From: a virus | DNA length: 64,000 nucleotides | IMG/VR virus record: IMGVR_UViG_3300020185_004854 | Coordinates: 4,544 to 68,543 of that record | Direction: 5' to 3' (one strand) | Shown: in pieces, positions 19,125 through 64,000 of the stretch | Layout of the letters: every line of letters begins with the position of its first letter | Numbering within the stretch: the stretch's first letter is position 1 | Program-made: the position numbers and the translations under genes | Notes under the pieces: model-generated | What the model was told of the DNA's origin: nothing | Database searches by the model: none | The model's input: only the letters and a program-made list of their open reading frames with translations

Positions 19125-19502
19125 CTACATTAATAACGTTTGAATATTATTCTTATCAATCTCTAATTGCGAAATCAAGTCTAAAGTTAAGCCTTTTAAA
19201 GTTGATAGAGAGTCGGAATCAAAATCGAGTAAATGCCCATTCTCACCCGAGACGTTTTCGCTCAATGAAGCTTTCTGGATTTCATCTAAAGAATGTATTT
19301 GTTTGTAATACAAATTATAAAGAGAGTTGATAGACTCGCTAAGGTTTTGATGTAAGTTTTTTTTCTCAGAAACGCTTAAATGCAATTCGTTATTTAAATA
19401 AGAATCCAGAACAAAATGATAAGTTTGATAGGAAGGTTCAAAATTTAAGACTTCTTTAGAGTAAAAACTAAAAGAATCCCAAGCTAGTTCAAGCCTACTC
19501 AC
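19125..19502 (-). CDS. hypothetical protein
   Basis: start revised to GTG 19502 so that it does not overlap the tRNA. Confidence 0.55.
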   Translation of the reverse strand: MSRLELAWDSFSFYSKEVLNFEPSYQTYHFVLDSYLNNELHLSVSEKKNLHQNLSESINSLYNLYYKQIHSLDEIQKASLSENVSGENGHLLDFDSDSLSTLKGLTLDLISQLEIDKNNIQTLLM

Positions 19503-19517
19503 GATTAAAGATGCGAG

Positions 19518-19593
19518 TGGAGCCACCTGTCGGGGTCGAACCGACGACATCCTCATTACAAGTGAGGCGCTCTACCAACTGAGCTAAGGTGGC
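19518..19593 (-). tRNA. tRNA-Thr(UGU) with encoded CCA
   Basis: GCCACCT acceptor, D arm AGCTCAGTTGGTAGAGC, anticodon arm CCTCA-CTTGTAA-TGAGG, GGTTCGAC T loop; 76 nt. Confidence 0.97.
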
Positions 19594-37383: not shown

Positions 37384-37548
37384 CTATTTTCCATTAAACT
37401 TTTCTTTTAATTCGAGAATAATTTTAATTTTATCTTCTTTACTTAAAGAGGCATATGATTTTTTAAATCTGCGCAAAAGTCTTTTTTGCTCAGGGTGACC
37501 TTCGTACCCCATGATATTTTTAATTTCTTTTAATTTTGATTTATTCAT
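37384..37548 (-). CDS. basic hypothetical protein, 54 aa (not in ORF track)
   Basis: MNKSKLKEIKNIMGY...KFNGK*; start overlaps the guaC stop. Confidence 0.6.
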   Translation of the reverse strand: MNKSKLKEIKNIMGYEGHPEQKRLLRRFKKSYASLSKEDKIKIILELKEKFNGK

Positions 37549-38516
37549 GTTTTAATATATTCTGTATTATAAAGTGAGGTTAATGCATTTCCACCAGAAT
37601 AACTAATTGAGCTCTGTAAATCCTGAGTGACTTCACGTAACTTTTCTTCGATAGTCATATTATTACAAGGGATATTGGTGAGCTTTCCCTCTATGTTGTT
37701 TTTGTGTCCCTTACTCTCTGCACTGGCAGAGCCAAAATAAGCTTTATAAAAAGTATTATGAACACTACTGTGGACAGCAGGGCTGTCAACGCACGCGGCA
37801 AAGAGCCCCCCTGCCATAACCATTTTCGACCCAGCAACAATAGCTTTTGCAATATCTCCGTTGTGCTTTACACCTCCGTCAGCAATGATTGGGATTTCTT
37901 CCCCGTTTCCATTAAATTCTCCAGAGTATAACCCAGAACAGTTCTGAACACAAGTGAACATAGGAACTGTGAATCCTGTTTTACTTTTTGTTGTGCATGG
38001 AGACCCTTGACCTATTCCAACTTTCACTATGTCAGCACCCCAAGAAGCTAAAGCTTTGACAGCTTCAGGAGTCGCTACGTTGCCAGCGATAATTTTTGTG
38101 TTAGGTAAGTTTTCTTTTATAAATGCTATCATTCTTTTCATTTTTATTGAATGACCATGCGCTATATCTATCGTTAGGAAATCTAATCTTAATTTATTAG
38201 TTCTTAATTTATTTATAATTGTTTTGTCTTTATCTTGAACCCCCACGCTAAAAGATATTGTTTTCCAATTTTGAAGGTTAGCTTGTTCTATTTGTGCATA
38301 TATGTCATTGTTGAACCTATGCATGATATAAAAGTAATCATTTTCACTCATCCAGCTTGATAAGTCTAGGTTTATAACCGATTTCATGTTAGCGGGAATG
38401 ATTGGTAGTAAAAACTTTTTACCAAATAAATCTAAAGAAGGGTCGCAATCCAATCTACTATTAACTTCGCTATACGTAGGCATTAAAGCCACGTCAGAAT
38501 ATTTTAAATATTTCAT
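37545..38516 (-). CDS. guaC: GMP reductase
   Basis: PANM, TIDIAHGH, IAGNV, KVGIGQGSPCTT, IIADGG, YFGSAS, LQSSISY.GG. Confidence 0.92.
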   Translation of the reverse strand: MKYLKYSDVALMPTYSEVNSRLDCDPSLDLFGKKFLLPIIPANMKSVINLDLSSWMSENDYFYIMHRFNNDIYAQIEQANLQNWKTISFSVGVQDKDKTIINKLRTNKLRLDFLTIDIAHGHSIKMKRMIAFIKENLPNTKIIAGNVATPEAVKALASWGADIVKVGIGQGSPCTTKSKTGFTVPMFTCVQNCSGLYSGEFNGNGEEIPIIADGGVKHNGDIAKAIVAGSKMVMAGGLFAACVDSPAVHSSVHNTFYKAYFGSASAESKGHKNNIEGKLTNIPCNNMTIEEKLREVTQDLQSSISYSGGNALTSLYNTEYIKT

Positions 38517-38791
38517 AAATAATTTTTTATATCAGAGCATAAGTTTGATACCAACTCTCCACTGACCCTAACTTTATATTTATTTCTAATAACGTGGTAA
38601 AAATTATTATTTTGAACGAGAATCAGTATGTCACATTTGTTATACATACTTTCACCATGCTTTTCTATAAAAAGAGTTTCTAAAGAGTTTATGATATAAT
38701 CTTGAGTCTGATCGAAACCGAATTGAAAATTATAATTATCAGTTTTATCTATAAGGATCATGACATATAGTACGAGTAAAAGCCGTAACAA
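38513..38791 (-). CDS. hypothetical protein
   Basis: ORF coupled to guaC; start uncertain. Confidence 0.5.
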   Translation of the reverse strand: MLRLLLVLYVMILIDKTDNYNFQFGFDQTQDYIINSLETLFIEKHGESMYNKCDILILVQNNNFYHVIRNKYKVRVSGELVSNLCSDIKNYL

Positions 38792-38825
38792 AAAGTTAAA
38801 TAAATAAACAACTCTAAAATTTCCA

Positions 38826-39365
38826 TTATCTGTATTCCTTTCTTAATAATCTCCAGCGATCTGAATCAATTGATTTACTACCATTATCTATAGCATACAA
38901 CATATCCACGATTTCGTCAAGACTATTATAAATATATTTATGAGGCAACATTCCAAGCATCCATAATGGAGCTTTAGGCTTACCCCCTTCCATACTTATG
39001 AAAATAGGCTTCTTCATGCGAACAGCAGTAACAATTTCTTCAGCGCTACCCCAACTAGCCACATCAGGGACTAAATGAGCGATAATAAAATCGCTACGAT
39101 CAACCAGATTAAGATCGTAAGATCTGACTGTTTTCATTTTATTAGCAACTCTATCATACTGTTTAGTCTTCATCCAAGTTTCCATATCTTGGCGAGAAGC
39201 TTCGTCTTCAGAAACATCTTTAATGAAAGGTTTTTTATAAGGATCAAAACAAGTTATAGATAGAGCGTTTAATTTTTCAGAAATTTCTTCACGCCAATCT
39301 CTGCCGCTAAGATACTGCATATGACCAACTAGGTAAGTTTTTGTTTTATATAATATATTATTCAT
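38826..39365 (-). CDS. nucleoside 2-deoxyribosyltransferase-like protein
   Basis: YLVGHM..WRE..FDP..DL..VDRSDFIIA..GSAEE. Confidence 0.75.
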   Translation of the reverse strand: MNNILYKTKTYLVGHMQYLSGRDWREEISEKLNALSITCFDPYKKPFIKDVSEDEASRQDMETWMKTKQYDRVANKMKTVRSYDLNLVDRSDFIIAHLVPDVASWGSAEEIVTAVRMKKPIFISMEGGKPKAPLWMLGMLPHKYIYNSLDEIVDMLYAIDNGSKSIDSDRWRLLRKEYR

Positions 39366-41524: not shown

Positions 41525-41686
41525 CTATTTCCACCTACAGTAATTAGGATTCTCAGCTCTCTTGCGACGCATATAATCTCTTTTTTGAAGCTTTCTCCTG
41601 TCAGTATCAGCCTCGTCATATTTTTTTTGAGCTTTTTTTTGAGCTTCAGATGTATTTATTTTTGTTTTTTTGATTTTCTTGTTCAT
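41525..41686 (-). CDS. basic hypothetical protein, 53 aa (not in ORF track)
   Basis: MNKKIKKTK..AQKKYDE..RDYMRRKR..WK*. Confidence 0.6.
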   Translation of the reverse strand: MNKKIKKTKINTSEAQKKAQKKYDEADTDRRKLQKRDYMRRKRAENPNYCRWK

Positions 41687-41716
41687 ATCTATTATAATAA
41701 GTGTAAAAAAGATTTA

Positions 41717-42544
41717 ATGCAACTTAAAAGAAAAATATTAATAATGGGCTTGCCTGGATCAGGTAAGACTACTTTAGCTGAGAAATTAGTACCAAGACTT
41801 TCAGCGTCTTGGTTTAACGCAGACGCTGTTCGTCAAGATATTTATTCCGAATTAGGATTTACTCCTGAAGAGAGAATGGAGCACGCTAAAAGAATGGGAA
41901 AGTTATGCGATTGGGCCAGCATAAGTGGGAATTATTCCGTGGCGGATTTTGTGTGCCCAACAGAAGAAGCAAGAAAAGCTTTTAACCCTGACTATATTAT
42001 TTGGGTGAATAGAATTGAGGAGGGTAGGTACGAAGACACTAATAAATTATTCCAAAAACCAACTGAAGATGAAAGGTGGGACGCTCATGATATTATATTA
42101 GAAGATGGCACCCCTGATGAATGGTGCGACACCGTAATTCAAAATATAAATGCTACTGAAAAATGGAATAATCAAGCCCCCACAGCTTTATTGATTGGTA
42201 GGTATCAACCATTTCACGTCGGACATAAAACTTTAGTCGCGGAATCAATTAAAAGAACTGGTCAATGCTGTATAGCACTAAGAGATGTAGGTGGAATTGA
42301 TGAAAAAAACCCTTATGATTTTGAGAAAGTGAAAGCCGAAATTAAAACTGCATGCGTGGAATTTGGGAATAAAATAAAAATTATTGAACTTCCAAATATT
42401 ACAGATATTTTTTATGGCAGAGGAGTCGGGTACAATATCGAGCAGTTGGAATTGAGTAAAGAGTTGCAATCAGTTTCAGCAACAAAGATTAGAGCTGGAA
42501 TAATAGGACAAGATGGGAAGCCAACAGGTAAAAGACCCGAATAA
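41717..42544 (+). CDS. APS-kinase-like domain fused to an HxGH nucleotidyltransferase
   Basis: MGLPGSGKTT, NADAVR, LGF..EER..ADFVCP (CysC-like); GRYQPFHVGH..SATKIR; start revised to ATG 41717. Confidence 0.8.
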   Translation: MQLKRKILIMGLPGSGKTTLAEKLVPRLSASWFNADAVRQDIYSELGFTPEERMEHAKRMGKLCDWASISGNYSVADFVCPTEEARKAFNPDYIIWVNRIEEGRYEDTNKLFQKPTEDERWDAHDIILEDGTPDEWCDTVIQNINATEKWNNQAPTALLIGRYQPFHVGHKTLVAESIKRTGQCCIALRDVGGIDEKNPYDFEKVKAEIKTACVEFGNKIKIIELPNITDIFYGRGVGYNIEQLELSKELQSVSATKIRAGIIGQDGKPTGKRPE

Positions 42545-42546
42545 AT

Positions 42547-42927
42547 ATGGAAAAGAAAAGTACAATTTTTTGTGATATAGATGGGACGATTTTTAAATAC
42601 CGAGAGTTTGAAAATTATAAGAAAGAAAAGTGCCAAGTCCTCCCAGGAGTATTAAATAAATTAAATAAATGGAGAGAAGATGGTCACATGATAATACTCA
42701 CCACGGCAAGACCTGAAAACTTAAGAGAAGATACGTTGGAAGAATTAAGCATAAGCAATGTCCCATACGACAGATTAATAATGGGAATCGAGAGAGGTGT
42801 TAGGGTTTTAATTAACGATAAAGATCCGAAATTAAAACAACCAAAAGCTATAGCGATAAACCTTAAAAGAGACGAGGGTATGATTTTCGATAAAATAGAA
42901 ATAGATTTGAAAGCTAATTCTCTTTGA
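42547..42927 (+). CDS. HAD-family phosphatase
   Basis: FCDIDGTI, LTTAR, LINDK. Confidence 0.85.
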   Translation: MEKKSTIFCDIDGTIFKYREFENYKKEKCQVLPGVLNKLNKWREDGHMIILTTARPENLREDTLEELSISNVPYDRLIMGIERGVRVLINDKDPKLKQPKAIAINLKRDEGMIFDKIEIDLKANSL

Positions 42928-43439
42928 TGATTTTAGATAAACAAATTAAAAATTTCCCAGAGTATTTTTACGGCGTTATCGAAATATCGAAGGGTTCTAG
43001 CAACAAATACGAATACAATAAAGATTTCAATATGATTGAATTTGATAGAAAACTATCGAGTTCAATGACGTACCCAGGAAATTACGGATTCGCGCCTAAG
43101 ACTTTAGCTGAGGATGGAGACCCTGTAGATTTAATAATGCTAAGCACTGACCCCATTATTCAATCAGGAGCACTGGTGAAATTAAAACCCTTAGCCTTAC
43201 TTGATATGATAGATTGCGGATCTATTGATAACAAAATCATTGCGACAGTACTAACGGAGGAGAATATAAATGATATTGATGACGTTTGCCCAATGTTCTT
43301 GAGGAAAACTGAAGACTTTTTTGCAAACTACAAAAATTTAGATAATGAAGAAGTGAGCTTAGGAAACTGGGGAAACGCGGACGCCGCAAAAGAATATTTA
43401 AAAAGCCGATATGAAATTGGTGGACGTGGCGGGAGTTGA
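42924..43439 (+). CDS. ppa: family I inorganic pyrophosphatase
   Basis: EI..GS.NKYE, YPGNYGF.P.TL.EDGDPVD, D.K, FF.NYK. Confidence 0.92.
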   Translation: MMILDKQIKNFPEYFYGVIEISKGSSNKYEYNKDFNMIEFDRKLSSSMTYPGNYGFAPKTLAEDGDPVDLIMLSTDPIIQSGALVKLKPLALLDMIDCGSIDNKIIATVLTEENINDIDDVCPMFLRKTEDFFANYKNLDNEEVSLGNWGNADAAKEYLKSRYEIGGRGGS

Positions 43440-43856
43440 ACCCGCGTCTTTAAACCTTCAAAATACACACCTACAAGTTTAGTTAGTTTTTTTTAAAGTT
43501 ATGATACTAACATCCAACTACTTGTTTTAATTATTCACTCAAATTTGAGGCCCCCGAATACTCAGTGGTGCAGTTTTTAAAACTAGTAAAATTTTATCTG
43601 TTTTTGCAGATGTCGTCCTCGTATTCTAAATATCTGCGTCAATAAAAACGAGGGGGTAGCTTTAAGCTACCATCTCAAGCTCTTCAGCTTGCTCGAATTG
43701 CACGAGGGAATCGTACTCTTCAGTAGCAGCTTCAAGAAGCTCTTTAATGCTATAATAACCTTCGCCATATACAGCTTTGTGTCTTGATATCGGAGCCAGA
43801 CACACCTCCGACTTGCAGTATATAGATCCAACTTAAATCAAATCCAGTACACGCCC
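43418..43856 (-). ncRNA. ssrA: tmRNA, 439 nt
   Basis: 5' GGGCGTG pairs with 3' CACGTCC-ACCA including G3-U70; T arm GCGGGTTCAACTCCCGC; pk1-like element; tag ORF 43766-43662 with stop in hairpin GGTAGC-TTAAA-GCTACC. Confidence 0.93.
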
Positions 43857-43863
43857 ATAAAAA

Positions 43864-43910
43864 TTTTAAAGAACTAATGCTCGCATAGAGCATGCTGATT
43901 AATTTTACAC
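43864..43910 (-). promoter_or_regulatory. tmRNA leader: GTGTA motif, hairpin, boxA-like element
   Basis: GTGTAAAAT (from 43910), ATGCTC-N5-GAGCAT, AGTTCTTTAAAA. Confidence 0.5.
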
Positions 43911-43993
43911 ATGAAAATAAAATTTGTGTATAATAATATTATATGATTCATCACGTTTCAATTATTCAAATAATAAGTTTATTAGCTATCGTG

Positions 43994-46465
43994 TTAGTTT
44001 TGAGTTGTTTGTGATTTAGAATAAGTGAATTTTTTATTCACATAATCAAATTTAACAGTATCATTATTAACGATGTCTTTTGATAATATACTCTCGCAGA
44101 GTATAGATTCAATATGCTGATTAAATAATCTTTCAATCGGTCTCGCCCCAAGATTTAAATCTTTTAATTTTGAAACTAAAAAGTCTAAAACATTTGAAGA
44201 TATACTTATGAGAATTTTCTTAGCTTTCAATCTTTTGTTTAAAGTTTGCATATAGATTGATATTATTTTTGTATAGTGATCGTCTGAGAAATTAGAAAAT
44301 ATTACAATATCACTTATCCGATTAACAAATTCAGGGGAAAAATGTTTACAGGCTAAATTATTAATTTTTTCATTTATGATATCTTGATTAACTCCATTAG
44401 AGAGAAACCCAACAGATTGAGATGGTTTGTCTAGAATATCGCTGCCAAGATTACCAGTTAAAATAATTAAGCAATTTTTGAAATCAGCAGACCTACCATA
44501 ATTATCACTAAGCTTACCCTCATCAAGAATCAAAAGCAAGGATTTCAAAACATCTGGGTGAGCTTTTTCAATTTCATCAAAAAGAATAACACTGTAAGGT
44601 TTTTTTCTGACTTGATCCACTAAATTACTACCATCTTCATAGCCAACATATCCTGGGGATGACCCTGTAATTTTAGAAGAACTTGAACTTTCGGAAAACT
44701 CACCCATATCAATTCTAATAATTTTATCTTCACCCCCGTAAATAAATTTAGACACTTGTTTAGCCATGAAGGTTTTTCCAGTTCCAGTTCGACCAAGTAA
44801 CAAAAAGACTCCAGCAGGTTTTTGAGGATTGTTTAATCCGCAAGCTGAACGATGTATGGATTGGCAAATTTTTTGTATAGCGGCATCCTGTCCGATAATC
44901 TCTTTCTTAAGGTTACTTTCTAACTTTAAGTACTTATCGTCCGAGGAGGATGATATAATTGACAGAGGGATTTTAACTTTTTGAGAAATGACTTCTTCAA
45001 TATTTTCTTTTGAAATGTATATCTTTTTTTTTGAAATCGTTTTCTGCCAATCATCTAAAATCGTTTGATACTTTTCAAAAAGATCATCAACGCACTCAGC
45101 TAATACTTTTCTCCTCTCCTTGTCAGTGGTAGACTCCTCCTGATCTATTAAAGATTCTAAAGAAGACTCTAAGTTTAATATTTCTTCTGGTCTGTGAAAG
45201 TTTTTCACTCGAGCTTTCGAAGCAGCTTCATCTATGATATCAATAGCTTTATCTGGCAAAAAGCGATCATTAATATATCGAGAACTAAGTTCTACCGCAG
45301 CCTCTAAAGCGTTTTTTCTGAATATAACTTGGTGAAAAGCTTCGTATTCTGGAGCTAAACTCTTTAAGATATTAAGACAATCTTTCTTAGAAGGCTCTGA
45401 AACTAAAACTGATTGAAATCTTCTTGATAAAGCAGAGTCTTTTTCAATTGAATTTTTGAATTCTTTTAAAGTGGTAGCTCCTATACATTTTAAATCCCCT
45501 CGAGCGAGTAACGGTTTTAATATATTAGCGGCATCCATTCCGCCTTCAGCATTTCCAGCACCCATTAAAGTATGAACTTCATCAATGAATAAAATGTTTT
45601 TTTCCGAGGATTCAGCTTGTTGTAAAATATCTTTTAAACGCTCTTCGAATTGACCCCTGTATTTAGTTCCAGCAAGAATACTATTAAAATTTAAACTAAA
45701 AACTTCGCAGTTAAGTAATATTTCGGGAACTTGCTTGGATACTATTCTTTGAGATAACCCTTCTATTAAAGCTGTCTTTCCAACGCCAGCTTCACCTAAG
45801 ATTATTGGGTTGTTTTTTACCCTGCGACATAAAATTTCTATAACCTGGTTAATTTCATCTTCCCTACTGACGACTTCATCAAACTTACCCTGAGAAGCAA
45901 GTGTTGTATAATTGATTGAAAACTGCTCTAAGGGGTTTGGGTCATGATCTTTTTGAACCTTTGCTTTTAAATTATTTTCCTTAACGCTGTTAAGGAATTT
46001 CTTGAGATCTTTACGTTTTTCTTCCACGTCGCCCTCTAGTGTAGTTTGAACAGCTTGAAAGATTACATCAGGATCCAAGTCAAAATTTAAGAATAAATTT
46101 TGAACATTAGGATTGGATTGTAAAGAAAGAAATACATGCTCAACCCCTACGTAATCATGACCATAGGATATTGCTAATTTCGAAGAATCTCTTAATAATA
46201 TTTTAAAGCTTCGAGAATAATTAATATCAATTCTTTCATTTTTAGATATAGTAGGAGGCGAAAAATTTAACACAGCTTTTTTTAATTCTTTTAAGGATAG
46301 GGCAGCCTCTCCTCCCATAGAAAAAAACAGAGTATCTTGCACTTTAAAAATTCCATAAATTAAATGTATGGGATCTACGGATTTAACTCTAGATTGCACG
46401 CATAAATTTTTAGCTATTTTAATAGCTTGTTGAACCCTGGGGGTAAAATTTGGCAACATATCCAT
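43994..46465 (-). CDS. clpC: ClpC-type AAA+ unfoldase
   Basis: Clp-N repeats, GEAGVGKT/FIDEVH, short middle coiled coil, GRTGTGKT/FDEIEKAH, GYVGY pore loop, VGF ClpP-docking loop. Confidence 0.92.
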   Translation of the reverse strand: MDMLPNFTPRVQQAIKIAKNLCVQSRVKSVDPIHLIYGIFKVQDTLFFSMGGEAALSLKELKKAVLNFSPPTISKNERIDINYSRSFKILLRDSSKLAISYGHDYVGVEHVFLSLQSNPNVQNLFLNFDLDPDVIFQAVQTTLEGDVEEKRKDLKKFLNSVKENNLKAKVQKDHDPNPLEQFSINYTTLASQGKFDEVVSREDEINQVIEILCRRVKNNPIILGEAGVGKTALIEGLSQRIVSKQVPEILLNCEVFSLNFNSILAGTKYRGQFEERLKDILQQAESSEKNILFIDEVHTLMGAGNAEGGMDAANILKPLLARGDLKCIGATTLKEFKNSIEKDSALSRRFQSVLVSEPSKKDCLNILKSLAPEYEAFHQVIFRKNALEAAVELSSRYINDRFLPDKAIDIIDEAASKARVKNFHRPEEILNLESSLESLIDQEESTTDKERRKVLAECVDDLFEKYQTILDDWQKTISKKKIYISKENIEEVISQKVKIPLSIISSSSDDKYLKLESNLKKEIIGQDAAIQKICQSIHRSACGLNNPQKPAGVFLLLGRTGTGKTFMAKQVSKFIYGGEDKIIRIDMGEFSESSSSSKITGSSPGYVGYEDGSNLVDQVRKKPYSVILFDEIEKAHPDVLKSLLLILDEGKLSDNYGRSADFKNCLIILTGNLGSDILDKPSQSVGFLSNGVNQDIINEKINNLACKHFSPEFVNRISDIVIFSNFSDDHYTKIISIYMQTLNKRLKAKKILISISSNVLDFLVSKLKDLNLGARPIERLFNQHIESILCESILSKDIVNNDTVKFDYVNKKFTYSKSQTTQN

Positions 46466-49005
46466 TACTTGACGTCTCCTAGCTTCATATAAATTTTTTC
46501 TTTTAAAGGTAAAATGTTGTCGGCAAAAATAATATCAGAATATTTAGAGCCAACTACCCCTATAATGTCGTCTTTTTCGGGGGTTTTTTTCCCAGATTCT
46601 AGGTAGTCACTGTATTTATTGCCTCTAGCGTTATCCATAAACATTACTGGGTATTTACCGTATTCATCATTTAAGATAATCTTAATATATTTATTACCAT
46701 TACGACTAACCCCTTTATAAGAATCCGAAACAACTCCAATGAATTTACCTCGGCAAGACGCGTTATCATAAAAATCATTTGAATTATATATTGTTTCAGA
46801 ATCGTTAAAGACGGATTTTAAGTCAATGCTATAACTATAACCCAAGAGTTTGGTTTCAAAGAACCAATTGGCGAATTTTTCATACTGTTTGTTTTGTAGG
46901 TAAATTGATTTGTAGTTTTCATATTTTGATTTAAAGGTGTTAAACCTAGATTCTTTCATAAGAGGTTTTCCATCTTGAGCTATCAAGCCTTCTTTGGCAG
47001 CAGCTATAATATCTAGCAACATATAGTTATATTTAGGGCCTAAGCCAATCATTAGCTTTTTTTCTCTATCAGTTAATAAATTAAAAGACTGAGCTTCTAA
47101 AACTAGTAGAGATCTACTACAAGAATAACTAGGCAGGCAACCAGCTTGAATTAAAGAAGATAATACGCCAATGTTTAACCCTGATTGTTTAGCTTGTATG
47201 AATGTTTTGAATTTATTAGGCTTATCAGTAGATCTAAAATCGCTTAAAGATTTTAAAGATTTTTCACTAACCCCCTTGATACTATTTAAACCATAACGAA
47301 GATCACTCCCTTCTTTGGCAAAATCCATCGAAGACCTTTCCAAGTCTGGAGGCAAAAGCTTAACTTTAAAAAAGGGCAGCTCTTTACTAATTTGGCTAAT
47401 TTCTTCCTGAGGAGAAGGTTCAAACTTAGTCATCCTTAACAAGCTTAGAAAGAACTCCTGAGTATAATTAAACTTTAAGAAAGTTGTCCACGCAGCTAAT
47501 GTAGAATACGCTATAGAGTGACTTTTATTGAAAGAGTAATTAGCGCTATCTTCAGCAACCTTCCATAATATTTGACCGACTTCTTCTGGAAGTTTTTGTT
47601 CAGAAATCTTGTTTTCAATTTTTTCTTTCCACAAGGACATTTGATCTACTTTTTTCTTACCAACGATTCTTCTCAACTGTTCAGCTTCGTCGAGTGAGAA
47701 CCCAATTCTTACAGCCATTTTCATTAATTGTTCTTGATACAAAGGTATACCTCCAGTATAACTCAATTCCTCTACGAAGAAATCATGAACAACGTTAAAA
47801 TTATTTGTTTTTACGTACTCAGAATAAAGTTCTGTAAATTCTAGAGCTCCTGGCCTGGCAATAGCTATAACAGCGCTTAACTGCTCTAAGTTCTTAGGCT
47901 TAACTGATTGACATACCCTAAAGTTTGTATCAGCTTCTATTTGAAATAATCCATGAGGTGATCTCAAGTTATCTTGAAGCGGCAAATAAACAGAGGGATC
48001 ATCTAAGTTTATAGATTTTACATCTAGATTAATATTTTTACAGACATCATAAATAACACTCAAAGTTCTCAAGCCCAGAATATCAAACTTAACCATTAAC
48101 TCTGAGACCCAATTCATGTCATAAGCAGTGACGATAGAACCGTCATTAGTTGACTGAAGAGGGCAAATTTCAGAAATTTTATAAAAAGATATAGCAATTC
48201 CAGACGGATGCACACCAGTATTTTTATACAAACCTTCAATTTTTCTTGCAATTTTATAACAAGCAGGATTCTCTTTCGACCAAGAAAGAAAATCTTCACT
48301 TTCTTTTGCAGAGCTCTCCAACGAGGATACTTTGCCGAATTTCTTGGGGATTAAATCGCTTACAACGTTAACTTCTTTCTCTGAAAGGTCGGAGACAATT
48401 TTACCACATTCTTTAATGCAAAGCTTACTACTTAAACTGTTTAAGGTTAAGATTTTAGAGGTCCTAGACGGGTTTTTTTTATCGATATAATTAATTACTT
48501 TTTGCCTATGCTCGTAAGCTATATCGTTATCCACATCAGCTAATAAACTTCCATCAAGATACGTTACTCCTTCTTGCTCGATTTTTTTAGCTCGACTTTC
48601 AGACACAAACCTTTCAAAGAATAGTTCGTATTTTACTGGGTCAACACTAGTCACTCCAATTAAAAATAATACTAAAGACCCAGCGGCAGATCCCCTACCT
48701 GGACCGACAGGTATATTATTTTCATGACAAAAATTAATAATATCCCAATTTAATAAAATATAATCAACGAAACCTAATTTATTGAGAGTTTTCAGTTCAG
48801 AGCGTAACCTTTCAGAGTAATTAATGCCAAAATTATTCTTATTTAAACTTTTTTCACATAACGATTTAAGGAAAGTGAAGTTGTCGACATCTTCATCTAA
48901 AGATAGAGATTTGTAATATTTTTTTTCTATTTTTATTTGAGGTAAGCGCACTCCTGGAGGGACGCAATTTTTATACTCAGTAAAATTACTTGTAAAGTTA
49001 TTCAT
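46465..49005 (-). CDS. dnaE: DNA polymerase III alpha catalytic part (most of the PHP domain absent)
   Basis: GPGRGSAAGSL, FERF, ADVDND, HPSG, KFDILGL, YQEQ, YSFNKSH; start revised to ATG 49005. Confidence 0.93.
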   Translation of the reverse strand: MNNFTSNFTEYKNCVPPGVRLPQIKIEKKYYKSLSLDEDVDNFTFLKSLCEKSLNKNNFGINYSERLRSELKTLNKLGFVDYILLNWDIINFCHENNIPVGPGRGSAAGSLVLFLIGVTSVDPVKYELFFERFVSESRAKKIEQEGVTYLDGSLLADVDNDIAYEHRQKVINYIDKKNPSRTSKILTLNSLSSKLCIKECGKIVSDLSEKEVNVVSDLIPKKFGKVSSLESSAKESEDFLSWSKENPACYKIARKIEGLYKNTGVHPSGIAISFYKISEICPLQSTNDGSIVTAYDMNWVSELMVKFDILGLRTLSVIYDVCKNINLDVKSINLDDPSVYLPLQDNLRSPHGLFQIEADTNFRVCQSVKPKNLEQLSAVIAIARPGALEFTELYSEYVKTNNFNVVHDFFVEELSYTGGIPLYQEQLMKMAVRIGFSLDEAEQLRRIVGKKKVDQMSLWKEKIENKISEQKLPEEVGQILWKVAEDSANYSFNKSHSIAYSTLAAWTTFLKFNYTQEFFLSLLRMTKFEPSPQEEISQISKELPFFKVKLLPPDLERSSMDFAKEGSDLRYGLNSIKGVSEKSLKSLSDFRSTDKPNKFKTFIQAKQSGLNIGVLSSLIQAGCLPSYSCSRSLLVLEAQSFNLLTDREKKLMIGLGPKYNYMLLDIIAAAKEGLIAQDGKPLMKESRFNTFKSKYENYKSIYLQNKQYEKFANWFFETKLLGYSYSIDLKSVFNDSETIYNSNDFYDNASCRGKFIGVVSDSYKGVSRNGNKYIKIILNDEYGKYPVMFMDNARGNKYSDYLESGKKTPEKDDIIGVVGSKYSDIIFADNILPLKEKIYMKLGDVK

Positions 49006-49643
49006 TATATGTTGGAGTCCCAAATCATTGATTGGAAAACTTTAAAATTTTGTTCGATATCATAAAGGGCGTCGTGGAGCTTGTTTTCATCAAAATCAAT
49101 TTTGTATTTTTGACACAAAGATTTTAAATTAGTTTTAATTCCTTTTTGTCTAATTTTTTGAAGCTTGAACTGCCAAAGAGTGAGGTCGGTGGAGTCATAT
49201 TCTATATTCATAGCGTTAGCTTTCGCTAAACAATTAGTGTCAATTAAACGGTTTAAGTATGAATAATCAGATTGCTTGCCACATAATAATCTGTGAGTGT
49301 TGTGAATAAAAATGTCAAAACCTATAATGTTATGTCCCACTATGTAATAATTATCATTATAAAAATAACTCTCAAAAAGGTTTAAAACCTCCAATGGATC
49401 TACGGCTCGTTTTTTATAGACAGACTCTTTGAATCCCGTAACTTTTTTTGCTCCATCTGATATTTTTAGATCATCCCAGCGTAAATAAAAATCATATTTT
49501 TTTTCAATACCCTTGCTTGAGCAGATTAAGAAAGCTAATTGCCAAGGCTTATTATCAGGCGAGGCTAAGTTTAAGCTGCAAGTTTCATAATCAAACACTA
49601 AGAACTTTTTATCTTTGTTAAATCTGATTAAATTTGAATTCAT
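49005..49643 (-). CDS. dnaQ: DEDDh 3'-5' exonuclease (Pol III epsilon-like)
   Basis: FDYET, GHNIIGFD, IDT, HDALYD. Confidence 0.88.
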   Translation of the reverse strand: MNSNLIRFNKDKKFLVFDYETCSLNLASPDNKPWQLAFLICSSKGIEKKYDFYLRWDDLKISDGAKKVTGFKESVYKKRAVDPLEVLNLFESYFYNDNYYIVGHNIIGFDIFIHNTHRLLCGKQSDYSYLNRLIDTNCLAKANAMNIEYDSTDLTLWQFKLQKIRQKGIKTNLKSLCQKYKIDFDENKLHDALYDIEQNFKVFQSMIWDSNI

Positions 49644-50389
49644 ACCGCAACCTCCTTCCAGCTTTCAAAGCAAAATTCTCGACTACCAAAACCTTCCAAG
49701 TTTGGCCGAGATAAAGAAGTGTTTCGAGAGAAACCTCTGTTACATATACACTTATAAGTTTGCAACGCATCTGAATCAGCGCGGTTTTTATAAAAAATAC
49801 TCTTAGCCGATTCTTTTTTGTAACCGTGCTCCTCGCAGAAATTATTAACTATGTTAGTGAGCATAAAATCAACAGGTAAGTTATTGTTTTCAAGAAAAAA
49901 GAGCGGATCGGTAAACGAAAAATCTGGGATGCAATTAGAAAAAGAAAAACTATTTTGATACAAAAAAGAATCGTAAAAAGGTATCGCGAGCATTAAATTT
50001 TTTTCATTCCAAAGTTTTTTTAAACATTCAAAATTACCTAATCCATCTAAGTCGCAATAAATTGAACTATAGATTAAATTTAAATCTTTACACCCATCAT
50101 CGTTCTTGGCAAAAATAATAATCTTATGAAGCGACTTAGGATCATCTTTGGACTCACAGCTAATTTTAAATCTTAACCCAAAAATTAAATGAATATTTTG
50201 ATCTAAACAATTTTTCCTAGCTTCCAAAAAACCTGTCGGGGCATCTTCAACTAAAACGAGTTTGTCGAGGCTATTATCTATTAAAATATCAAAAATAGAA
50301 TCAGCGCTAGCATCAGAAGAGGCGTTCGGCGGATTTAGAGTTAAGATACTTTTTCCTATGCTATAATGAGACTTGAATAAAGGTAACAT
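49640..50389 (-). CDS. stand-alone PHP domain of DNA polymerase III alpha
   Basis: KSHYSIGKS, IFG.R, IIIFAKN..G.KDL resemble the DnaE N-terminus; sigma70 promoter at 50429-50401. Confidence 0.8.
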   Translation of the reverse strand: MLPLFKSHYSIGKSILTLNPPNASSDASADSIFDILIDNSLDKLVLVEDAPTGFLEARKNCLDQNIHLIFGLRFKISCESKDDPKSLHKIIIFAKNDDGCKDLNLIYSSIYCDLDGLGNFECLKKLWNEKNLMLAIPFYDSFLYQNSFSFSNCIPDFSFTDPLFFLENNNLPVDFMLTNIVNNFCEEHGYKKESAKSIFYKNRADSDALQTYKCICNRGFSRNTSLSRPNLEGFGSREFCFESWKEVAV

Positions 50390-59855: not shown

Positions 59856-60227
59856 TTATTTCTTAAAAAAAGTTCTTATAGTTTTTTTGTCAATTGGGTA
59901 CTTAGTAGGTTCAGTTATATCTTTGTTGAATTTATACGGTTTATATTTAGGGGGGGCATAGTGGAATCTTTTCCATTTCTTATAAAGTATTTTAAACCAT
60001 AAGCGGTTTTTTTTATCTAAAAACATCGCCAAAGATGGCACCCTTCCGTTTTTACAAGGAGCATCTTGAAGGCTTAATGTGGACCAAAAATTCTCATCAG
60101 GAAACTTTTTAAAAAGCTTTCTAAATAAAATAGTTTCTTTCTTCCAGAAGGAAATAGCAGACTTTGCTCGTCCGTCTTTCGGACAAGTGAGCACTCTTGA
60201 TAAAACATCTTTGTAATTAAAATTCAA
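59856..60227 (-). CDS. hypothetical protein
   Basis: start revised because the track start TTG 60272 is the -35 box of TTGACA-17-TATAAT. Confidence 0.55.
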   Translation of the reverse strand: MNFNYKDVLSRVLTCPKDGRAKSAISFWKKETILFRKLFKKFPDENFWSTLSLQDAPCKNGRVPSLAMFLDKKNRLWFKILYKKWKRFHYAPPKYKPYKFNKDITEPTKYPIDKKTIRTFFKK

Positions 60228-60243
60228 AATATATACAACCTCT

Positions 60244-60272
60244 ATTATATATATAATAAAAATAAATGTCAA
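60244..60272 (-). promoter_or_regulatory. consensus sigma70 promoter TTGACA-17-TATAAT
   Basis: perfect consensus upstream of the recA operon. Confidence 0.85.
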
Positions 60273-60319
60273 GATAATTAAATTATTATTTAATTATTTA
60301 CATTTAAATAGCGTGTTTT

Positions 60320-63300
60320 TTAACAGGATTTTAAGAAATATGCGTCTCCCTCAATCCTGCCACAGTAACCAGCGCTTACAATTTCTTTCCCCTCACAAAT
60401 ACCTACGAAGTCTTCAAAGGCATTTGTTACGTCTATCTCCGTAGTTGACTCCCCACTATAAGTGGAATTTTTACCGCAATCTGATTCTTGAAATAGATCA
60501 ATTAAATTGATAACCTCATCTAAGCAAGAACAAACACTAGAGTTAGTTTGACCACTGATTGTCGCGTGAGGTTCGCCTGCGAGCTCATCGTCTTCACATA
60601 TATTTGAAGTGTTATATATATCAAAAAGTCTAGTGGCACCATTAAAACTTTGACAAGCCATAGGGAGATTGCAATTTCTGCTTCCGCTGAAACTAGGTAA
60701 AGAGTTGAGGGCGGAAAGTGTTGTAGCTTGCGAAAAAGAGGTGAGATTCGATGAGTATGTGAAGGAAGCACTTGCTGTAATCTGGCAACCAACTTTTTCG
60801 AAACTAACAGGAATTTGCATATAATGAGCTGAACCGTCGTTAACTGCAAGCACTAATTCCCCTGGAAAACCAACACTAAGACCTCCAGTAGTCATGACGA
60901 TGGGGATTGGTTTGGGCCTCTTTGGAAATGTCAGTATTAAAGTATATTGTTCTATCGAATAACGTTTCTCACAAGGGTGAACGGTTCCCGAAATAGATAA
61001 CGTCGCAGCAGAAAAACTAACCGCATTTTGAACATTTAAGGTGATAGAGAAATCCATAGGAATTTCTAGGTCGGAATCAGTAGACTTACAGCAATCTCCA
61101 GCTCGTAAGCCTTTTTCTGTACAAAGCTTGACACCCACACTCGATAAATTGTCACATAATGTATCAAACTCACAAGTGCCTAGATCACTCGAGTCTGGTT
61201 CAAATTCTTCCGCCTGCCTATGCTCGAGCCATTGAACATTATTATTTAAATTACCAATATTACAACGCCCCCAGTTAGTATTAACTTGAGGGGGAAATCC
61301 TTGACAGTCATAAACTTGCTCTTGAACAATTGATAAACTTTCAATGCTAGTTGTACTGTCAGGATAGTCTATGCAGACGTTAGTTTGCTGCTTATGGAAA
61401 ACATTGGTGGGGTCACCTGCCTGTTCACATGCGGATTCTTGAAATGCAACAGAGCGTGAGCAACACTCATCACTCCCTGAAAATTTTACAGGTTCTTTTT
61501 TGATCAATTGAACTGTTGGTGAACCTGAACTACTCACTCCACCTTCATTGATTGAAACCGTGGCGAAACCTTCGCAACTACCCGTTTTCCCAATACAAGT
61601 TTCATTGGTGCAGTCCAAGCATGTAGGGGTCGGAGTAGAGAAGTCACATTTTTCATCACCACAATTTTTCACCTCTTCAAGATTATTAAAACTACCTCCA
61701 GCAATCGAATCGCCGTTTGAAGCGCAAAAAATGTGGTGATCAACTGATTCTGATTGATAGCAATTTCTATTGTAACTATAATAACCAGAAGAGGGCGGCT
61801 CAGAACCATCACAAACTTCCCAATAGGTATAACCACCGTCAGTGGGTAGAGATAAAGCTCCTTGCACGCATTTAATTCTTTGGTAACACTTGCAAGTTGG
61901 AGTCGGGGTTGGGGTTGGGGTTGGCTTGTTGCAATCCGCATCCCTACAACTCTCCACACTTCGAACTTCAGAATAATTCCGACTTGACCTTTTGCTAACA
62001 CCACATGGAATCTCCGACGAGCTTTTTACGCATATGAGATTTTGCCCAGAACCCACAGCAAAAATACCACTGGGGGGATCGCTCCAATTACAAACTGAAA
62101 CCGTTTGAATAGTGTCGTCGCATAAAGTTTCTTTGTAACACTTACAAGTTGGAGTCGGGGTTATAGTTGGAGTCGGCTTTATGCATGATTCTGCTTCACA
62201 GTCACTAACTGAATTGCAAGAATTCGTATCAAGACCAAGCTTTGATGTTGACGCGCACAAGGAATCATCAACAAGTTCGAGTTTAGTGCAAAGCGTTGAC
62301 TGTCCACTGCCGCATCTATTAAAACCATCTGAGATAGAGCTTGAGCCACAATGAAATCCATATTGAGGAGTTTCTTCATCGCAATCAATTCTACTATAAC
62401 ATTTGCAAGTTGGGGTTATAGTTGGAGTTGGAGTTGGGTCACACTGATCGCAAGTTTCTATAGCTTCACAATCTGAAGCGTCAAAGTCTTTAGCATTTCG
62501 ACATGCGAGGAAAAACGGTTGGAAGTTACCACATTTTTCGCCACACCTATAAAACCCTGGAGTAGCGATCTGACTAACCCCCCCTATGACATTAACTCTC
62601 GACCTTGATCCAGCTGGACAATCCGAGTAGATGTAACATCTTGTTGTGGGGGTTGGGGTTGGGGTTGGGGTTGGTTTTTGACATATTTCATCTTCACAAT
62701 CGTTAATAGTTTCCTGGCTGCAATTGGATAATTCAATATCTCCGAACCCATCGCATTTATTAATATCAACACTCTCAAATAAGAAACACTCTTCTTCTTG
62801 CCCATGACCGCAAAGTTTGTATACATTATTTAATTGCTGGTTTGAATTGTTATATCCATAAGTAACTTTTTGATTGATACAACTCGTTTTCGAGACACAA
62901 TCTAGGGTTTTAGTTGGGCTAGGAGTTGGAGTAGGATCAGGCGTAGGAGTCTTTGTTGGAGTAGGAGTCTTGGTCCCAGTCTGTGTTTTGGTTGGAGTAG
63001 ATGTGGACGTTGGTGTTACTGTACTGGTTGTTGTAGGCGTCGGAGTCTTGGTCCCAGTCTGTGTTTTAGTTGGAGTAGATGTGGACGTTGGTGTTACTGT
63101 ACTGGTTGTTGTAGGCGTCGGAGTCTTGGTCCCAGTCTCTGTTTTAGTCGGAGTAGATGTGGACGTTGGTGTTACTGTACTGGTTGTTGTAGGCGTCGGA
63201 GTCTTGGTCCCAGTCTCTGTTTTAGTCGGAGTAGATGTGGAGGTAAGCGTAGGTGTTGGCGTCGGAGGTACACAAGGAGAGCTATTGCAATTTGCTGATT

Positions 63301-64000
63301 CATAAGATGTTATATTTGAGCCAAAGTTACTATAGTCAGAGGGGCAAAATGCGATAATCGATAGAAATTCTGTAAAAGATAAACATTTATAAAAACCATT
63401 ACTAGTGTATGCAGCTTTTGTTCCACTAGCATCACTAGGAGCATTTTTGTATTTACCAAGACTGATCCCCTCGCAATCATTAACTTCTACACACTCTACA
63501 ATTACTTCAGTTTCAGAAGGTGTTGGTGTTGGTGTTGGTGTTGGTGTAGGCTCTATCTCAGGACACTCGAGGCAACTTGCTAAAAGTGAAACTTGTTTAG
63601 GCAAGCCAGAAGCAGCCCAAAAGGTAATTTCCCCACCAATACAATTTACTACCTCAGCAGTTGAACAATGATCAAAGTCACCAAAGGTTCCGAAAATATT
63701 ATAAGTATTATCGTAGAGGAAGTGTTGTACAACGCCAGTCTTACAGTTAAGTAACTTAACACAATTTTCTGTTCTCGTGGGTGTAGTTGTTGGTGTTATA
63801 GTGACTGTTGAAGTAAATGTGGAGGTAGGAGTTCGTGATAAAGTCGCTGTCTGTGTTGGAGTAGATGTGGACGTTGGTGTTACTGTACTGGTTGTTGTAA
63901 CCGTCGGAGTCTTGGTCCCAGTCTCTGTTTTAGTCGGAGTAGATGTGGACGTTGGTGTTACTGTACTGGTTGTTGTAGGCGTCGGAGTCTTGGTCCCAGT
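60320..64000 (-). CDS. very large Cys-rich, Thr/Pro mucin-like protein (5' end beyond the window)
   Basis: frame stays open from 60320 to the window edge; Cys-rich modules separated by PT linkers. Confidence 0.85.
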   Translation of the reverse strand, partial: TGTKTPTPTTTSTVTPTSTSTPTKTETGTKTPTVTTTSTVTPTSTSTPTQTATLSRTPTSTFTSTVTITPTTTPTRTENCVKLLNCKTGVVQHFLYDNTYNIFGTFGDFDHCSTAEVVNCIGGEITFWAASGLPKQVSLLASCLECPEIEPTPTPTPTPTPSETEVIVECVEVNDCEGISLGKYKNAPSDASGTKAAYTSNGFYKCLSFTEFLSIIAFCPSDYSNFGSNITSYESANCNSSPCVPPTPTPTLTSTSTPTKTETGTKTPTPTTTSTVTPTSTSTPTKTETGTKTPTPTTTSTVTPTSTSTPTKTQTGTKTPTPTTTSTVTPTSTSTPTKTQTGTKTPTPTKTPTPDPTPTPSPTKTLDCVSKTSCINQKVTYGYNNSNQQLNNVYKLCGHGQEEECFLFESVDINKCDGFGDIELSNCSQETINDCEDEICQKPTPTPTPTPTTRCYIYSDCPAGSRSRVNVIGGVSQIATPGFYRCGEKCGNFQPFFLACRNAKDFDASDCEAIETCDQCDPTPTPTITPTCKCYSRIDCDEETPQYGFHCGSSSISDGFNRCGSGQSTLCTKLELVDDSLCASTSKLGLDTNSCNSVSDCEAESCIKPTPTITPTPTCKCYKETLCDDTIQTVSVCNWSDPPSGIFAVGSGQNLICVKSSSEIPCGVSKRSSRNYSEVRSVESCRDADCNKPTPTPTPTPTCKCYQRIKCVQGALSLPTDGGYTYWEVCDGSEPPSSGYYSYNRNCYQSESVDHHIFCASNGDSIAGGSFNNLEEVKNCGDEKCDFSTPTPTCLDCTNETCIGKTGSCEGFATVSINEGGVSSSGSPTVQLIKKEPVKFSGSDECCSRSVAFQESACEQAGDPTNVFHKQQTNVCIDYPDSTTSIESLSIVQEQVYDCQGFPPQVNTNWGRCNIGNLNNNVQWLEHRQAEEFEPDSSDLGTCEFDTLCDNLSSVGVKLCTEKGLRAGDCCKSTDSDLEIPMDFSITLNVQNAVSFSAATLSISGTVHPCEKRYSIEQYTLILTFPKRPKPIPIVMTTGGLSVGFPGELVLAVNDGSAHYMQIPVSFEKVGCQITASASFTYSSNLTSFSQATTLSALNSLPSFSGSRNCNLPMACQSFNGATRLFDIYNTSNICEDDELAGEPHATISGQTNSSVCSCLDEVINLIDLFQESDCGKNSTYSGESTTEIDVTNAFEDFVGICEGKEIVSAGYCGRIEGDAYFLKSC
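62964..63241 (-). repeat. 78-bp coding tandem repeat (26 aa TSTSTPTKTETGTKTPTPTTTSTVTP)
   Basis: GGAGTCTTGGTCCCAGTC recurs at 62964, 63042, 63120 and 63198. Confidence 0.92.
63855..64000 (-). repeat. second block of the same 78-bp repeat
   Basis: unit recurs at 63906 and 63984 and runs off the window. Confidence 0.9.

Follow-up and report, generated by a model that had tools for sequence, protein, structure and literature searches.

A 64,000-nucleotide stretch of the IMG/VR virus record IMGVR_UViG_3300020185_004854 (positions 4,544 to 68,543; hereafter the window), which represents most of the 68,543-base record (CheckV completeness 51%), carries a gene for a one-piece transfer-messenger RNA (tmRNA; ssrA) with a long acidic tag reading frame and, 138 nt upstream on the same strand, a gene for a ClpC-type double-ring AAA+ unfoldase (Table 1). 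The phage origin assigned to this DNA in an earlier sequence-only reading is borne out by the IMG/VR record and by the gene run of a 249-aa open reading frame (ORF; orf249), an exonuclease, PolIII-alpha and ClpC, which is common to other viral contigs. Considered as a whole, the evidence makes it probable that the RNA gene belongs to an uncultured marine phage lineage, whose genomes measure approximately 120-215 kb, that it specifies a working tmRNA in one piece, and that this molecule bears a conserved acidic tag of 34 residues.

Table 1. Features of the ssrA-clpC locus and its flanks (window coordinates)
Feature	Position	Strand	Basis or remark
One-piece tmRNA gene (ssrA), CCA encoded	43418-43856	-	ARAGORN and Rfam RF00023
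Leader GTTCTTTAAAATTTT(T)AT, immediately ahead of the mature tmRNA 5' end	43857-43873	-	Family comparison
Pseudoknot 1 (PK1) region, limits approximate	43778-43810	-	Rfam structure line
U-5/A-4 before the resume codon, equivalent to E. coli U85/A86	43770-43771	-	10/10 acidic-tag relatives
Tag frame, 34 sense codons, resume codon GGC 43766-43764: GEGYYSIKELLEAATEEYDSLVQFEQAEELEMVA	43665-43766	-	Rfam alignment, relatives
Helix-5 hairpin, 7 bp, 3-nt loop = TAA 43664-43662	43655-43671	-	GGTAGCT-TAA-AGCTACC
Hairpin in the clpC-ssrA spacer	43893-43877	-	Consensus scan only
Promoter-like TACACA-17-TAAAAT, clpC-ssrA spacer	43930-43902	-	Consensus scan only
Promoter-like TTGAAA-17-TATTAT, clpC-ssrA spacer (43877-43961)	43961-43933	-	Consensus scan only
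ClpC-type double-ring AAA+ unfoldase, 823 aa; VGF loop 44405-44413	43994-46465	-	Pfam, PHROGs, PDB matches
PolIII-alpha core	46465-49023	-	Pfam, PHROGs; directly upstream of clpC
RNase T-type exonuclease	49005-49643	-	Pfam, PHROGs
249-aa ORF (orf249)	49640-50389	-	Pfam, PHROGs
Inorganic pyrophosphatase gene	42924-43439	+	Pfam PF00719, E 3.5e-42; convergent with the tmRNA gene

The tmRNA gene is complete. Its match to RF00023 runs through the full model (positions 1-374) and scores 98 bits (gathering score 47; E 4.9e-37), and a search of the whole record returned the same result; the score is low for RF00023, sister phage genes reaching 110-146 bits. In the acceptor stem, read directly from the sequence, the 5' GGGCGUG pairs with CACGUCC to give a G3-U70 wobble, and ACCA is encoded. 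With its stop codon, the tag frame (43766-43662) reads GEGYYSIKELLEAATEEYDSLVQFEQAEELEMVA* and contains nine Glu, one Asp and one Lys (net charge -9), which would make 35 added residues in all when the alanine borne by the tmRNA is counted. It lacks the form of a canonical ClpX-type degron, having 34 residues and ending in E-M-V-A as against approximately 10-14 residues ending in L/V-A-A. The sequence-only reading had described a complete tmRNA with G3-U70 and CCA, a resume codon at GGC 43766, a long, acidic tag not of the LAA type and a tag stop in the loop of the expected hairpin, and each of these points withstood independent analysis, the TAA forming the loop of the 7-bp helix-5 hairpin.

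For the resume codon, ARAGORN offers a different start, at GCU 43727, 13 codons later in the same frame, which shortens the tag to 21 residues (ATEEYDSLVQFEQAEELEMVA). Several observations favor GGC 43766 over this start. The consensus resume codon falls on GGC in the Rfam alignment, 11 nt past PK1, and U-5/A-4, the counterparts of the U85/A86 that set the tag frame in E. coli (PMC2481249), precede it in all ten acidic-tag relatives. Homologous phage tmRNAs with other tags, including basic ones, align at the same GGC column, where ARAGORN itself places the start in L082, L084 and L085, and one relative has GCC (Ala) at this position, a typical resume-codon variant. Moreover, variable sites within the first 14 codons of the tag are distributed 3/2/5 over codon positions 1/2/3, and the 13 codons dropped by ARAGORN encode a conserved peptide with synonymous changes. 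In this anatomy, namely the full-model match, G3-U70, CCA, the spacing from PK1, U-5/A-4 and the stop in the helix-5 loop, the molecule is like bacterial one-piece tmRNAs (RF00023, E. coli ssrA); it differs from the E. coli system, whose tag is ANDENYALAA (PMC2481249), in its 34 codons, its strong acidity, its MVA end and the lack of smpB from the phage.

The acidic tag is not peculiar to the window. A degenerate pattern for ELLEAAxEEY found eight stretches in IMG/VR, all eight inside tmRNAs (seven called by ARAGORN; L150 read by eye), a scaffold pattern later added L234, and altogether the tag recurs in ten other contigs, among which it differs by in-frame insertions and deletions. Three length classes are present, of 34 (ending EMVA), 40 (PMAA) and 41 (EMAA) residues. 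Within the 34-residue class the cassettes share 88-91% peptide identity, and 17 of the 34 tag residues are invariant across ten sequences. Over 27 unambiguously aligned codons, variable sites fall 7/6/12 on codon positions 1/2/3, and the proportions of synonymous (pS) and nonsynonymous (pN) differences are 0.42 and 0.12 between the window and L092, and 0.36 and 0.16 between the window and L155. All 11 relatives keep frame 0 open, against seven of 11 for the +1 frame. Purifying selection on the peptide makes it likely that it is read by some protein.

As to its shape, AlphaFold2, given an alignment of ten sequences, draws tag residues 7-33 as a single helix (mean predicted local distance difference test score, pLDDT, 85.7), so that the tag is predicted to consist of a short linker followed by one long helix. 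The hydrophobic moment of residues 7-24 of the window tag is 0.49, a value reached by 1% of shuffled sequences; since 12-17% of shuffles reach the observed moment in the 40- and 41-residue subtypes, amphipathicity is not family-wide. When the tag was compared with Pfam and a tag profile with the PDB, the candidates obtained were PqqD (E 0.039, for the 41-residue subtype) and MsyB (E 1.1), both treated as noise. A more distant tmRNA (L093), with a different scaffold and a phage ClpC 39% identical, likewise has a long acidic frame starting from the GCA indicated by Rfam.

The wider family shows that the same RNA scaffold is used with tags of quite different character. A scaffold-pattern scan gave 100 viral stretches, 80 loci of which are listed; with the window added, 81 copies were available, and their tags were read by a regular expression (UA..U-G[GC]C to the stop before PK2). 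Among these 81 listed copies, the tag is acidic in nine (34-41 aa, net charge -9 to -11). In 64 it is basic or near-neutral and 20-38 aa long, with a G[NK]K start in nearly every case and an LALAA end in most, and eight could not be assigned to a class. The family alignment shows one scaffold in which tag class, the type of acceptor stem and a PK3-region insertion cut across one another, while the sequence of PK1 changes together with the tag cassette. In a tree computed from the scaffold with the PK1-tag columns left out, five changes are needed for the acidic class, at least two of them forced by strongly supported branches, and the window and L152 (both acidic) are grouped with five basic-tag genes in a clade with 99% support. 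The simplest reading is that recombination inside ssrA moves PK1 and tag together as an exchangeable cassette. Among sister phages, the same scaffold bears either an acidic tag or a basic G[NK]K...LALAA tag.

Further unusual tags occur at other sister loci (L084, L086, L179, L189, L192, L202, L205, L213, L228 and L237; L187, L208, L229 and L243). Some are very basic, with 31-33 residues, a net charge of +10 to +12 and an internal R..[AL]GFK-like repeat, and in another group the tags have 38 residues, with A as the first and AVAA or AAVA at the end; these very basic and 38-residue tags are as unusual as the acidic one. Beyond the tag, a 17-18-nt leader, GTTCTTT[AG]AAA(A)TTTTAT, is near-invariant in 19 family members (the window and 18 related loci), acidic and basic alike, which suggests either a signal specific to these phages or a short leader removed by processing. 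In many relatives, this leader is closely preceded by TTGACA-17-TAnnnT.

The tmRNA is represented, as an RNA of roughly 440 nt, in marine metatranscriptome assemblies. The window or parts of it were found in 20 public runs from 17 studies, six of these runs being metatranscriptomes with 9-12% of the sampled words; all labelled runs are described as marine, seawater, marine plankton, aquatic or plain metagenome, and one run is unlabelled. RNA contigs from four metatranscriptome runs belonging to three studies were compared with positions 43300-46500. They span 43414, 43418 or 43425 to 43847 or 43866 with two to three differences (one contig is 450 nt long), one of them reaching 43866 inside the leader, and Illumina adapter sequence adjoins 43418 in run X17 and 43847 in run X15. 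The clpC gene is not covered apart from pieces of 32-45 nt with 90-95% likeness, which probably derive from other organisms because their flanks are unlike. This difference in coverage between tmRNA and clpC is what an abundant stable RNA would give. A second contig from run X20 bears a tag variant of the L153 type.

The tag also appears to be private to phages, as the sequence-only reading had supposed. An exact degenerate search for ELLEAAxEEY in one genome per species from 185,579 species returned 37 stretches, only one of which lies inside a tmRNA. This match is on a 49,305-base contig (C17; L138 / G051) of a metagenome-assembled genome (MAG) labelled Proteobacteria bacterium, and the contig carries the exonuclease, PolIII-alpha, ClpC (54% identical) and a tmRNA with a 40-residue acidic tag in the phage order, with no other tmRNA above the cut-off in the MAG. 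Most likely, it would be a phage contig binned into a bacterial MAG. Since sister phages combine one scaffold with oppositely charged tags, at most one tag class could copy the tag of a shared host. As for the host itself, PolIII-alpha has no match above approximately 33% identity among isolates in 50,697 phage records. The tmRNA DNA was further compared with 401 genomes of the phylum of the G051 MAG (Proteobacteria label), where the full-length match is confined to the phage-like contig and the other 135 matching genomes align only with the last 27-79 nt (about 33 of 400 reaching E <= 1e-6), and with 401 genomes of the phylum of G453 (Bacteroidetes label), where none matched at E <= 1e-9 and one at E <= 1e-6. 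These counts give a weak hint that the tRNA-like end may be proteobacterial in type.

Several considerations weigh against the interpretation of the gene as a working tmRNA with a selected, phage-specific tag. The RNA signal derives from assembled contigs, and such contigs neither prove transcription nor define ends. The pN/pS figures cover 27 codons, in which the stop-codon hairpin and PK1 also constrain some nucleotides, and AlphaFold2 tends to draw short peptides as helices. The claim that the tag differs from that of the host relies on one exact degenerate motif scan, which a host tag diverging by a single residue would escape; even the phage L234 (ELIEAATEEY) breaks the motif. Finally, tagging, alanylation and SmpB binding are steps that we infer from the gene.

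Up to tagging, the proposed mechanism draws good support from anatomy and conservation. The tmRNA would be charged with alanine and delivered by the alanyl-tRNA synthetase (AlaRS), elongation factor Tu (EF-Tu) and SmpB of the host, the host being the likely source of SmpB because the phage is without smpB, and would rescue ribosomes stalled in infection and tag the unfinished chains. As the C-terminal [LM]-[AV]-A is common to both tag classes, a Clp-type or Lon-type machine is pointed to as the reader. Tagged proteins may be either spared or doomed.

The neighboring ClpC is one possible reader. Its Pfam domains are Clp_N, AAA, AAA_lid_9, AAA_2 and ClpB_D2-small, and it matches phrog_4871; the single Clp_N repeat (PF02861) scores 27.7 bits against a cut-off of 20.7. 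The best PDB matches are the ClpCs of S. aureus and B. subtilis (E about 1e-175 to 1e-178). ClpC chains align in one stretch (91-821, or 4-815; the alignment to B. subtilis ClpC starts at residue 4), whereas ClpB chains align in two, which points to a short middle domain. The Walker motifs and pore loops (GVGKT, DEVH, KYR, GTGKT, DEIEK and GYVG) are present and invariant in 16 sequences. A ClpP-docking [LIV]-G-[FL] loop marks partners of ClpP and is absent from ClpB; the window ClpC has V685-G686-F687 at this place, and [VLI]GF occurs in all 17 homologs from tmRNA-bearing relatives. The protein thus resembles cellular ClpC (PDB 3J3S for B. subtilis, 6EM8/6EM9 for S. aureus) in its full-length, single-stretch alignment including the short middle domain, in its two AAA+ rings with KYR and GYVG pore loops, and in its VGF, which aligns to AGF of S. 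aureus ClpC; it differs in a divergent N-domain and in the location of its gene in a phage replication module.

The arrangement reported in the sequence-only reading, a ClpC with an intact VGF loop upstream on the same strand and neither smpB nor clpP in the window, is therefore real, and the last point extends beyond the window: neither ClpP (PF00574) nor SmpB has a Pfam match across the 68.5-kb record, nor in G027, G028, G015, G019 and G002, two of which are at least 90% complete (G028 93%, G015 90%). Since the phage has no match for either, host ClpP and SmpB would be needed, and the VGF loop is presumably what allows the phage ClpC to dock on host ClpP. Adaptors resembling MecA, McsB or ClpS were absent among the 29 ORFs scanned with Pfam.

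Known systems provide partial parallels. Mycobacteriophage Bxz1 (cluster C), listed among phage ssrA genes in PMC4131195, has a tmRNA (73.9 bits) to which ARAGORN assigns the 25-residue tag ATDTDATVTDAEIEAFFAEEAAALV, acidic, free of K and R and not of the LAA type; like the window, it thus combines a phage-borne tmRNA with a long acidic tag lacking an LAA end, whereas its scaffold and host are different, no ClpC homolog was found in it, and the tags are compared in length, charge and C-terminus. The Mycoplasma ssrA tag is also far longer than usual, and its reader has switched from ClpXP to Lon; in PMC8403727, ssrA tags of 11 residues in E. coli and 14 in B. subtilis are given, and the 27-residue M. 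pneumoniae tag, degraded by Lon, is called unusually long. That tmRNA, however, is cellular and belongs to organisms without ClpXP, and the phage tags are longer still (34-41 residues). Bacillus phage G combines a tmRNA with a Clp unfoldase in one phage genome, as the marine lineage does, but it encodes ClpX and ClpP (PMC12484599) and has a 13-residue tag, compared with ClpC, tags of 20-41 residues and no ClpP matched in the marine lineage. Marine Melnitz-like phages and pelagimyophages also carry complete ssrA genes (PMC9004378), which are permuted, two-piece, of alphaproteobacterial type and accompanied by a riboswitch; the one-piece window gene belongs to a separate family. No exchange of tag cassettes is, to our knowledge, known for the Bxz1 group, although no search was directed at this point.

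Proposals as to what reads the tag, and to what end, differ in probability. With some reservation, since we think it rather doubtful, it may be proposed that the lineage runs its own tagging-unfolding pathway, in which the helical body of the tag, acidic or basic, would be more than a degron and serve as an address module, swapped by recombination inside ssrA. This module would choose which reader takes the products of ribosomes stalled in infection, be it a protease of the host, the phage ClpC working with host ClpP or some further adaptor. The phage ClpC may be one reader of tagged proteins, and it may act on those of either tag class.

A narrower version, put forward in the sequence-only reading, holds that the acidic tag is a private degron read by the phage ClpC on host ClpP, so that the two genes form a dedicated tagging-degradation pair. 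The proximity of the genes on one strand speaks for such a pair, as do the [VLI]GF loops of all 17 ClpCs, their intact pore-loop and Walker motifs, the lack of a matched phage ClpP and the co-occurrence of the two genes. ClpC was found in 20 of the 36 records of the tmRNA family that were searched, among them all 11 at least 90% complete, and conversely a tmRNA scores above the cut-off in 12 of 45 viral records with ClpC. Yet any two core genes of one lineage will co-occur, and the synteny on which the proposal depended is mostly lost. Among 17 ClpC-tmRNA pairs (window included), the genes lie within 200 nt in only four (138 nt in the window, 160 in G001, 89 in G013 and 83 in G051), 1.3-2.8 kb apart in three (G021, G028, G002) and 5.7-33 kb apart in ten, in one of which (G046) they are on opposite strands; of the eight pairs with an acidic tag, two are adjacent. 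An ARAGORN search of the 4-kb flanks on either side of 80 ClpC loci found a tmRNA in four, a count that understates synteny because Rfam found adjacent tmRNAs that had been missed (L002, L016). It is with PolIII-alpha that clpC travels, the order of 249-aa ORF, exonuclease and PolIII-alpha upstream of clpC being kept in eight of nine relatives with enough flank, while ssrA wanders.

Tag class, moreover, is not coupled to ClpC. The closest relative, G001, has a ClpC 80% identical overall to that of the window (N-domain 71%, AAA cores 86-88%) but a basic, LALAA-ending tag (GNKSRIQAYSPQSEQLALAA), and on the ClpC tree, where the window is sister to the basic-tag L002, tag class changes three times, with at least two changes forced. 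Bxz1 in turn has its acidic tag without a ClpC homolog. Complex predictions between ClpC residues 1-155 and the tag scored 0.08 and 0.02 (alignments A1 and A2) against a mark of 0.32, which is evidence neither way. Two incomplete genomes are uninformative: G048 (79% complete) has an acidic tag without PolIII-alpha and ClpC, the whole module probably being in the missing part, and G018 has ClpC and PolIII-alpha with no tmRNA in 73% of its genome. With ssrA-clpC synteny largely not conserved and tag class differing between phages with such similar ClpCs, a dedicated pair is unlikely; clpC is more probably a core gene of the replication module of the lineage, with no partnership reserved for the acidic tag.

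About equally improbable is the opposite idea, that the tag protects, the phage tmRNA outcompeting that of the host and freeing ribosomes while the acidic helix ending in MVA is poorly read by host ClpXP. The gain attached to this idea, and no better placed, would be that proteolytic capacity and amino acids are left unspent or that aggregation is avoided. The M-V-A terminus in place of L-A-A, the net charge of -9 and the predicted helix fit this view, as does Bxz1 with its own long acidic tag without an LAA end. Against it, sister phages with the same scaffold carry the canonical LALAA end, the basic class making up 64 of the 81 listed copies, so that avoidance of degrons is not a trait of the whole lineage, and the MAA-ending acidic subtypes (L092, L155) are near the LAA type.

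It is much less plausible that the peptide is irrelevant, the RNA merely recycling ribosomes or soaking up host SmpB and the long frame being a product of drift. A precedent for such a role is a molecule of phage DS6A with a tRNA-like domain only, which, as described in PMC4131195, may act by titrating SmpB. Drift, however, is contradicted by pN below pS, by indels that keep the frame and by a frame open in all 11 relatives, and half of the tag residues are invariant in ten sequences even though the ClpCs compared are only 38-54% identical to that of the window.

Least credible, and scarcely worth retaining, is that the true tag is the one reported by ARAGORN, for although resume codons are most commonly GCN and position -4 of GCU 43727 is likewise an A, this codon lies approximately 50 nt past PK1 instead of the 11 nt of the Rfam consensus, the codons ahead of it are conserved as peptide, and the start points chosen by ARAGORN vary among homologous genes. 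The program left uncalled three of the 13 family tmRNAs given as well as L150 (uncalled set: L086, L089, L090, L150), and its frame or start differs from that of the family alignment in L083, L087 and L088. As it mis-set or missed many tags of the family, phage tag catalogues built with ARAGORN would therefore be wrong for this family.

The preferred interpretation, a working phage tmRNA with a conserved acidic tag, bears on a broader problem, since why phages carry tmRNAs is an open question for which the literature offers guesses, including host-state sensing (PMC9004378, PMC7162821). According to PMC9004378, tmRNAs occur in 2.3% of isolate phage genomes and have been proposed to maintain the hijacked translation machinery or to tag selectively; they are also found in huge phages (PMC7162821) and in the phage list of the tmRNA Website (PMC4131195). 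In the literature consulted, supplementary tables aside, neither a pairing of phage tmRNA with ClpC nor acidic phage tags were found, nor a phage tmRNA family with tags of 34-41 residues, interchangeable tag classes or a constant ClpC companion. The marine lineage offers a natural experiment in which one scaffold carries two long tag cassettes, oppositely charged and each conserved as peptide, and in which marine samples contain detectable RNA, which argues that the peptide itself matters, beyond ribosome release. Two tags, one ClpC and peptides that can be searched for by mass spectrometry represent reagents for studying whether phages redirect the products of trans-translation.

The window as a whole has a G+C content of approximately 32%, with nearly all ORFs on the minus strand. 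RecA, a DnaB-type helicase and a PD-(D/E)XK nuclease are encoded around the tmRNA gene. ARAGORN finds two RNA genes in the window, the tmRNA and a tRNA-Thr(TGT) at 19518-19593 on the minus strand (Rfam 70.6 bits), the latter overlapping the 3' part of a 143-aa ORF call (19125-19556). The DnaE-type polymerase looks split, in that the 249-aa ORF weakly matches positions 70-147 of phrog_405, in the N-terminal part, and the 852-aa ORF matches positions 330-1053, with the exonuclease gene lying between both polymerase-like ORFs in an order that recurs in relatives. Toward the end of the window (60001-64000), G+C climbs from about 0.32 to 0.39-0.43, and this part holds an ORF of at least 1094 aa that runs off the end of the window and matches, weakly, only a PHROG without known function.

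On the plus strand, the neighbors of the tmRNA gene encode a kinase/cytidylyltransferase-like protein, an HAD phosphatase and the inorganic pyrophosphatase. Genes for GMP reductase and sugar-modifying enzymes lie further on. The last 22 nt of the pyrophosphatase gene overlap the tmRNA gene, so that the T-arm and CCA of the tmRNA lie inside the last codons of this opposite-strand gene. Together, window positions 37545-39365 and 41585-43439 hold a nucleotide-metabolism gene cluster comprising a GMP reductase/IMPDH-family protein, a nucleoside 2-deoxyribosyltransferase-like protein, an APS-kinase-like/cytidylyltransferase fusion, the HAD phosphatase and the pyrophosphatase, a composition that suggests nucleotide salvage or DNA modification.

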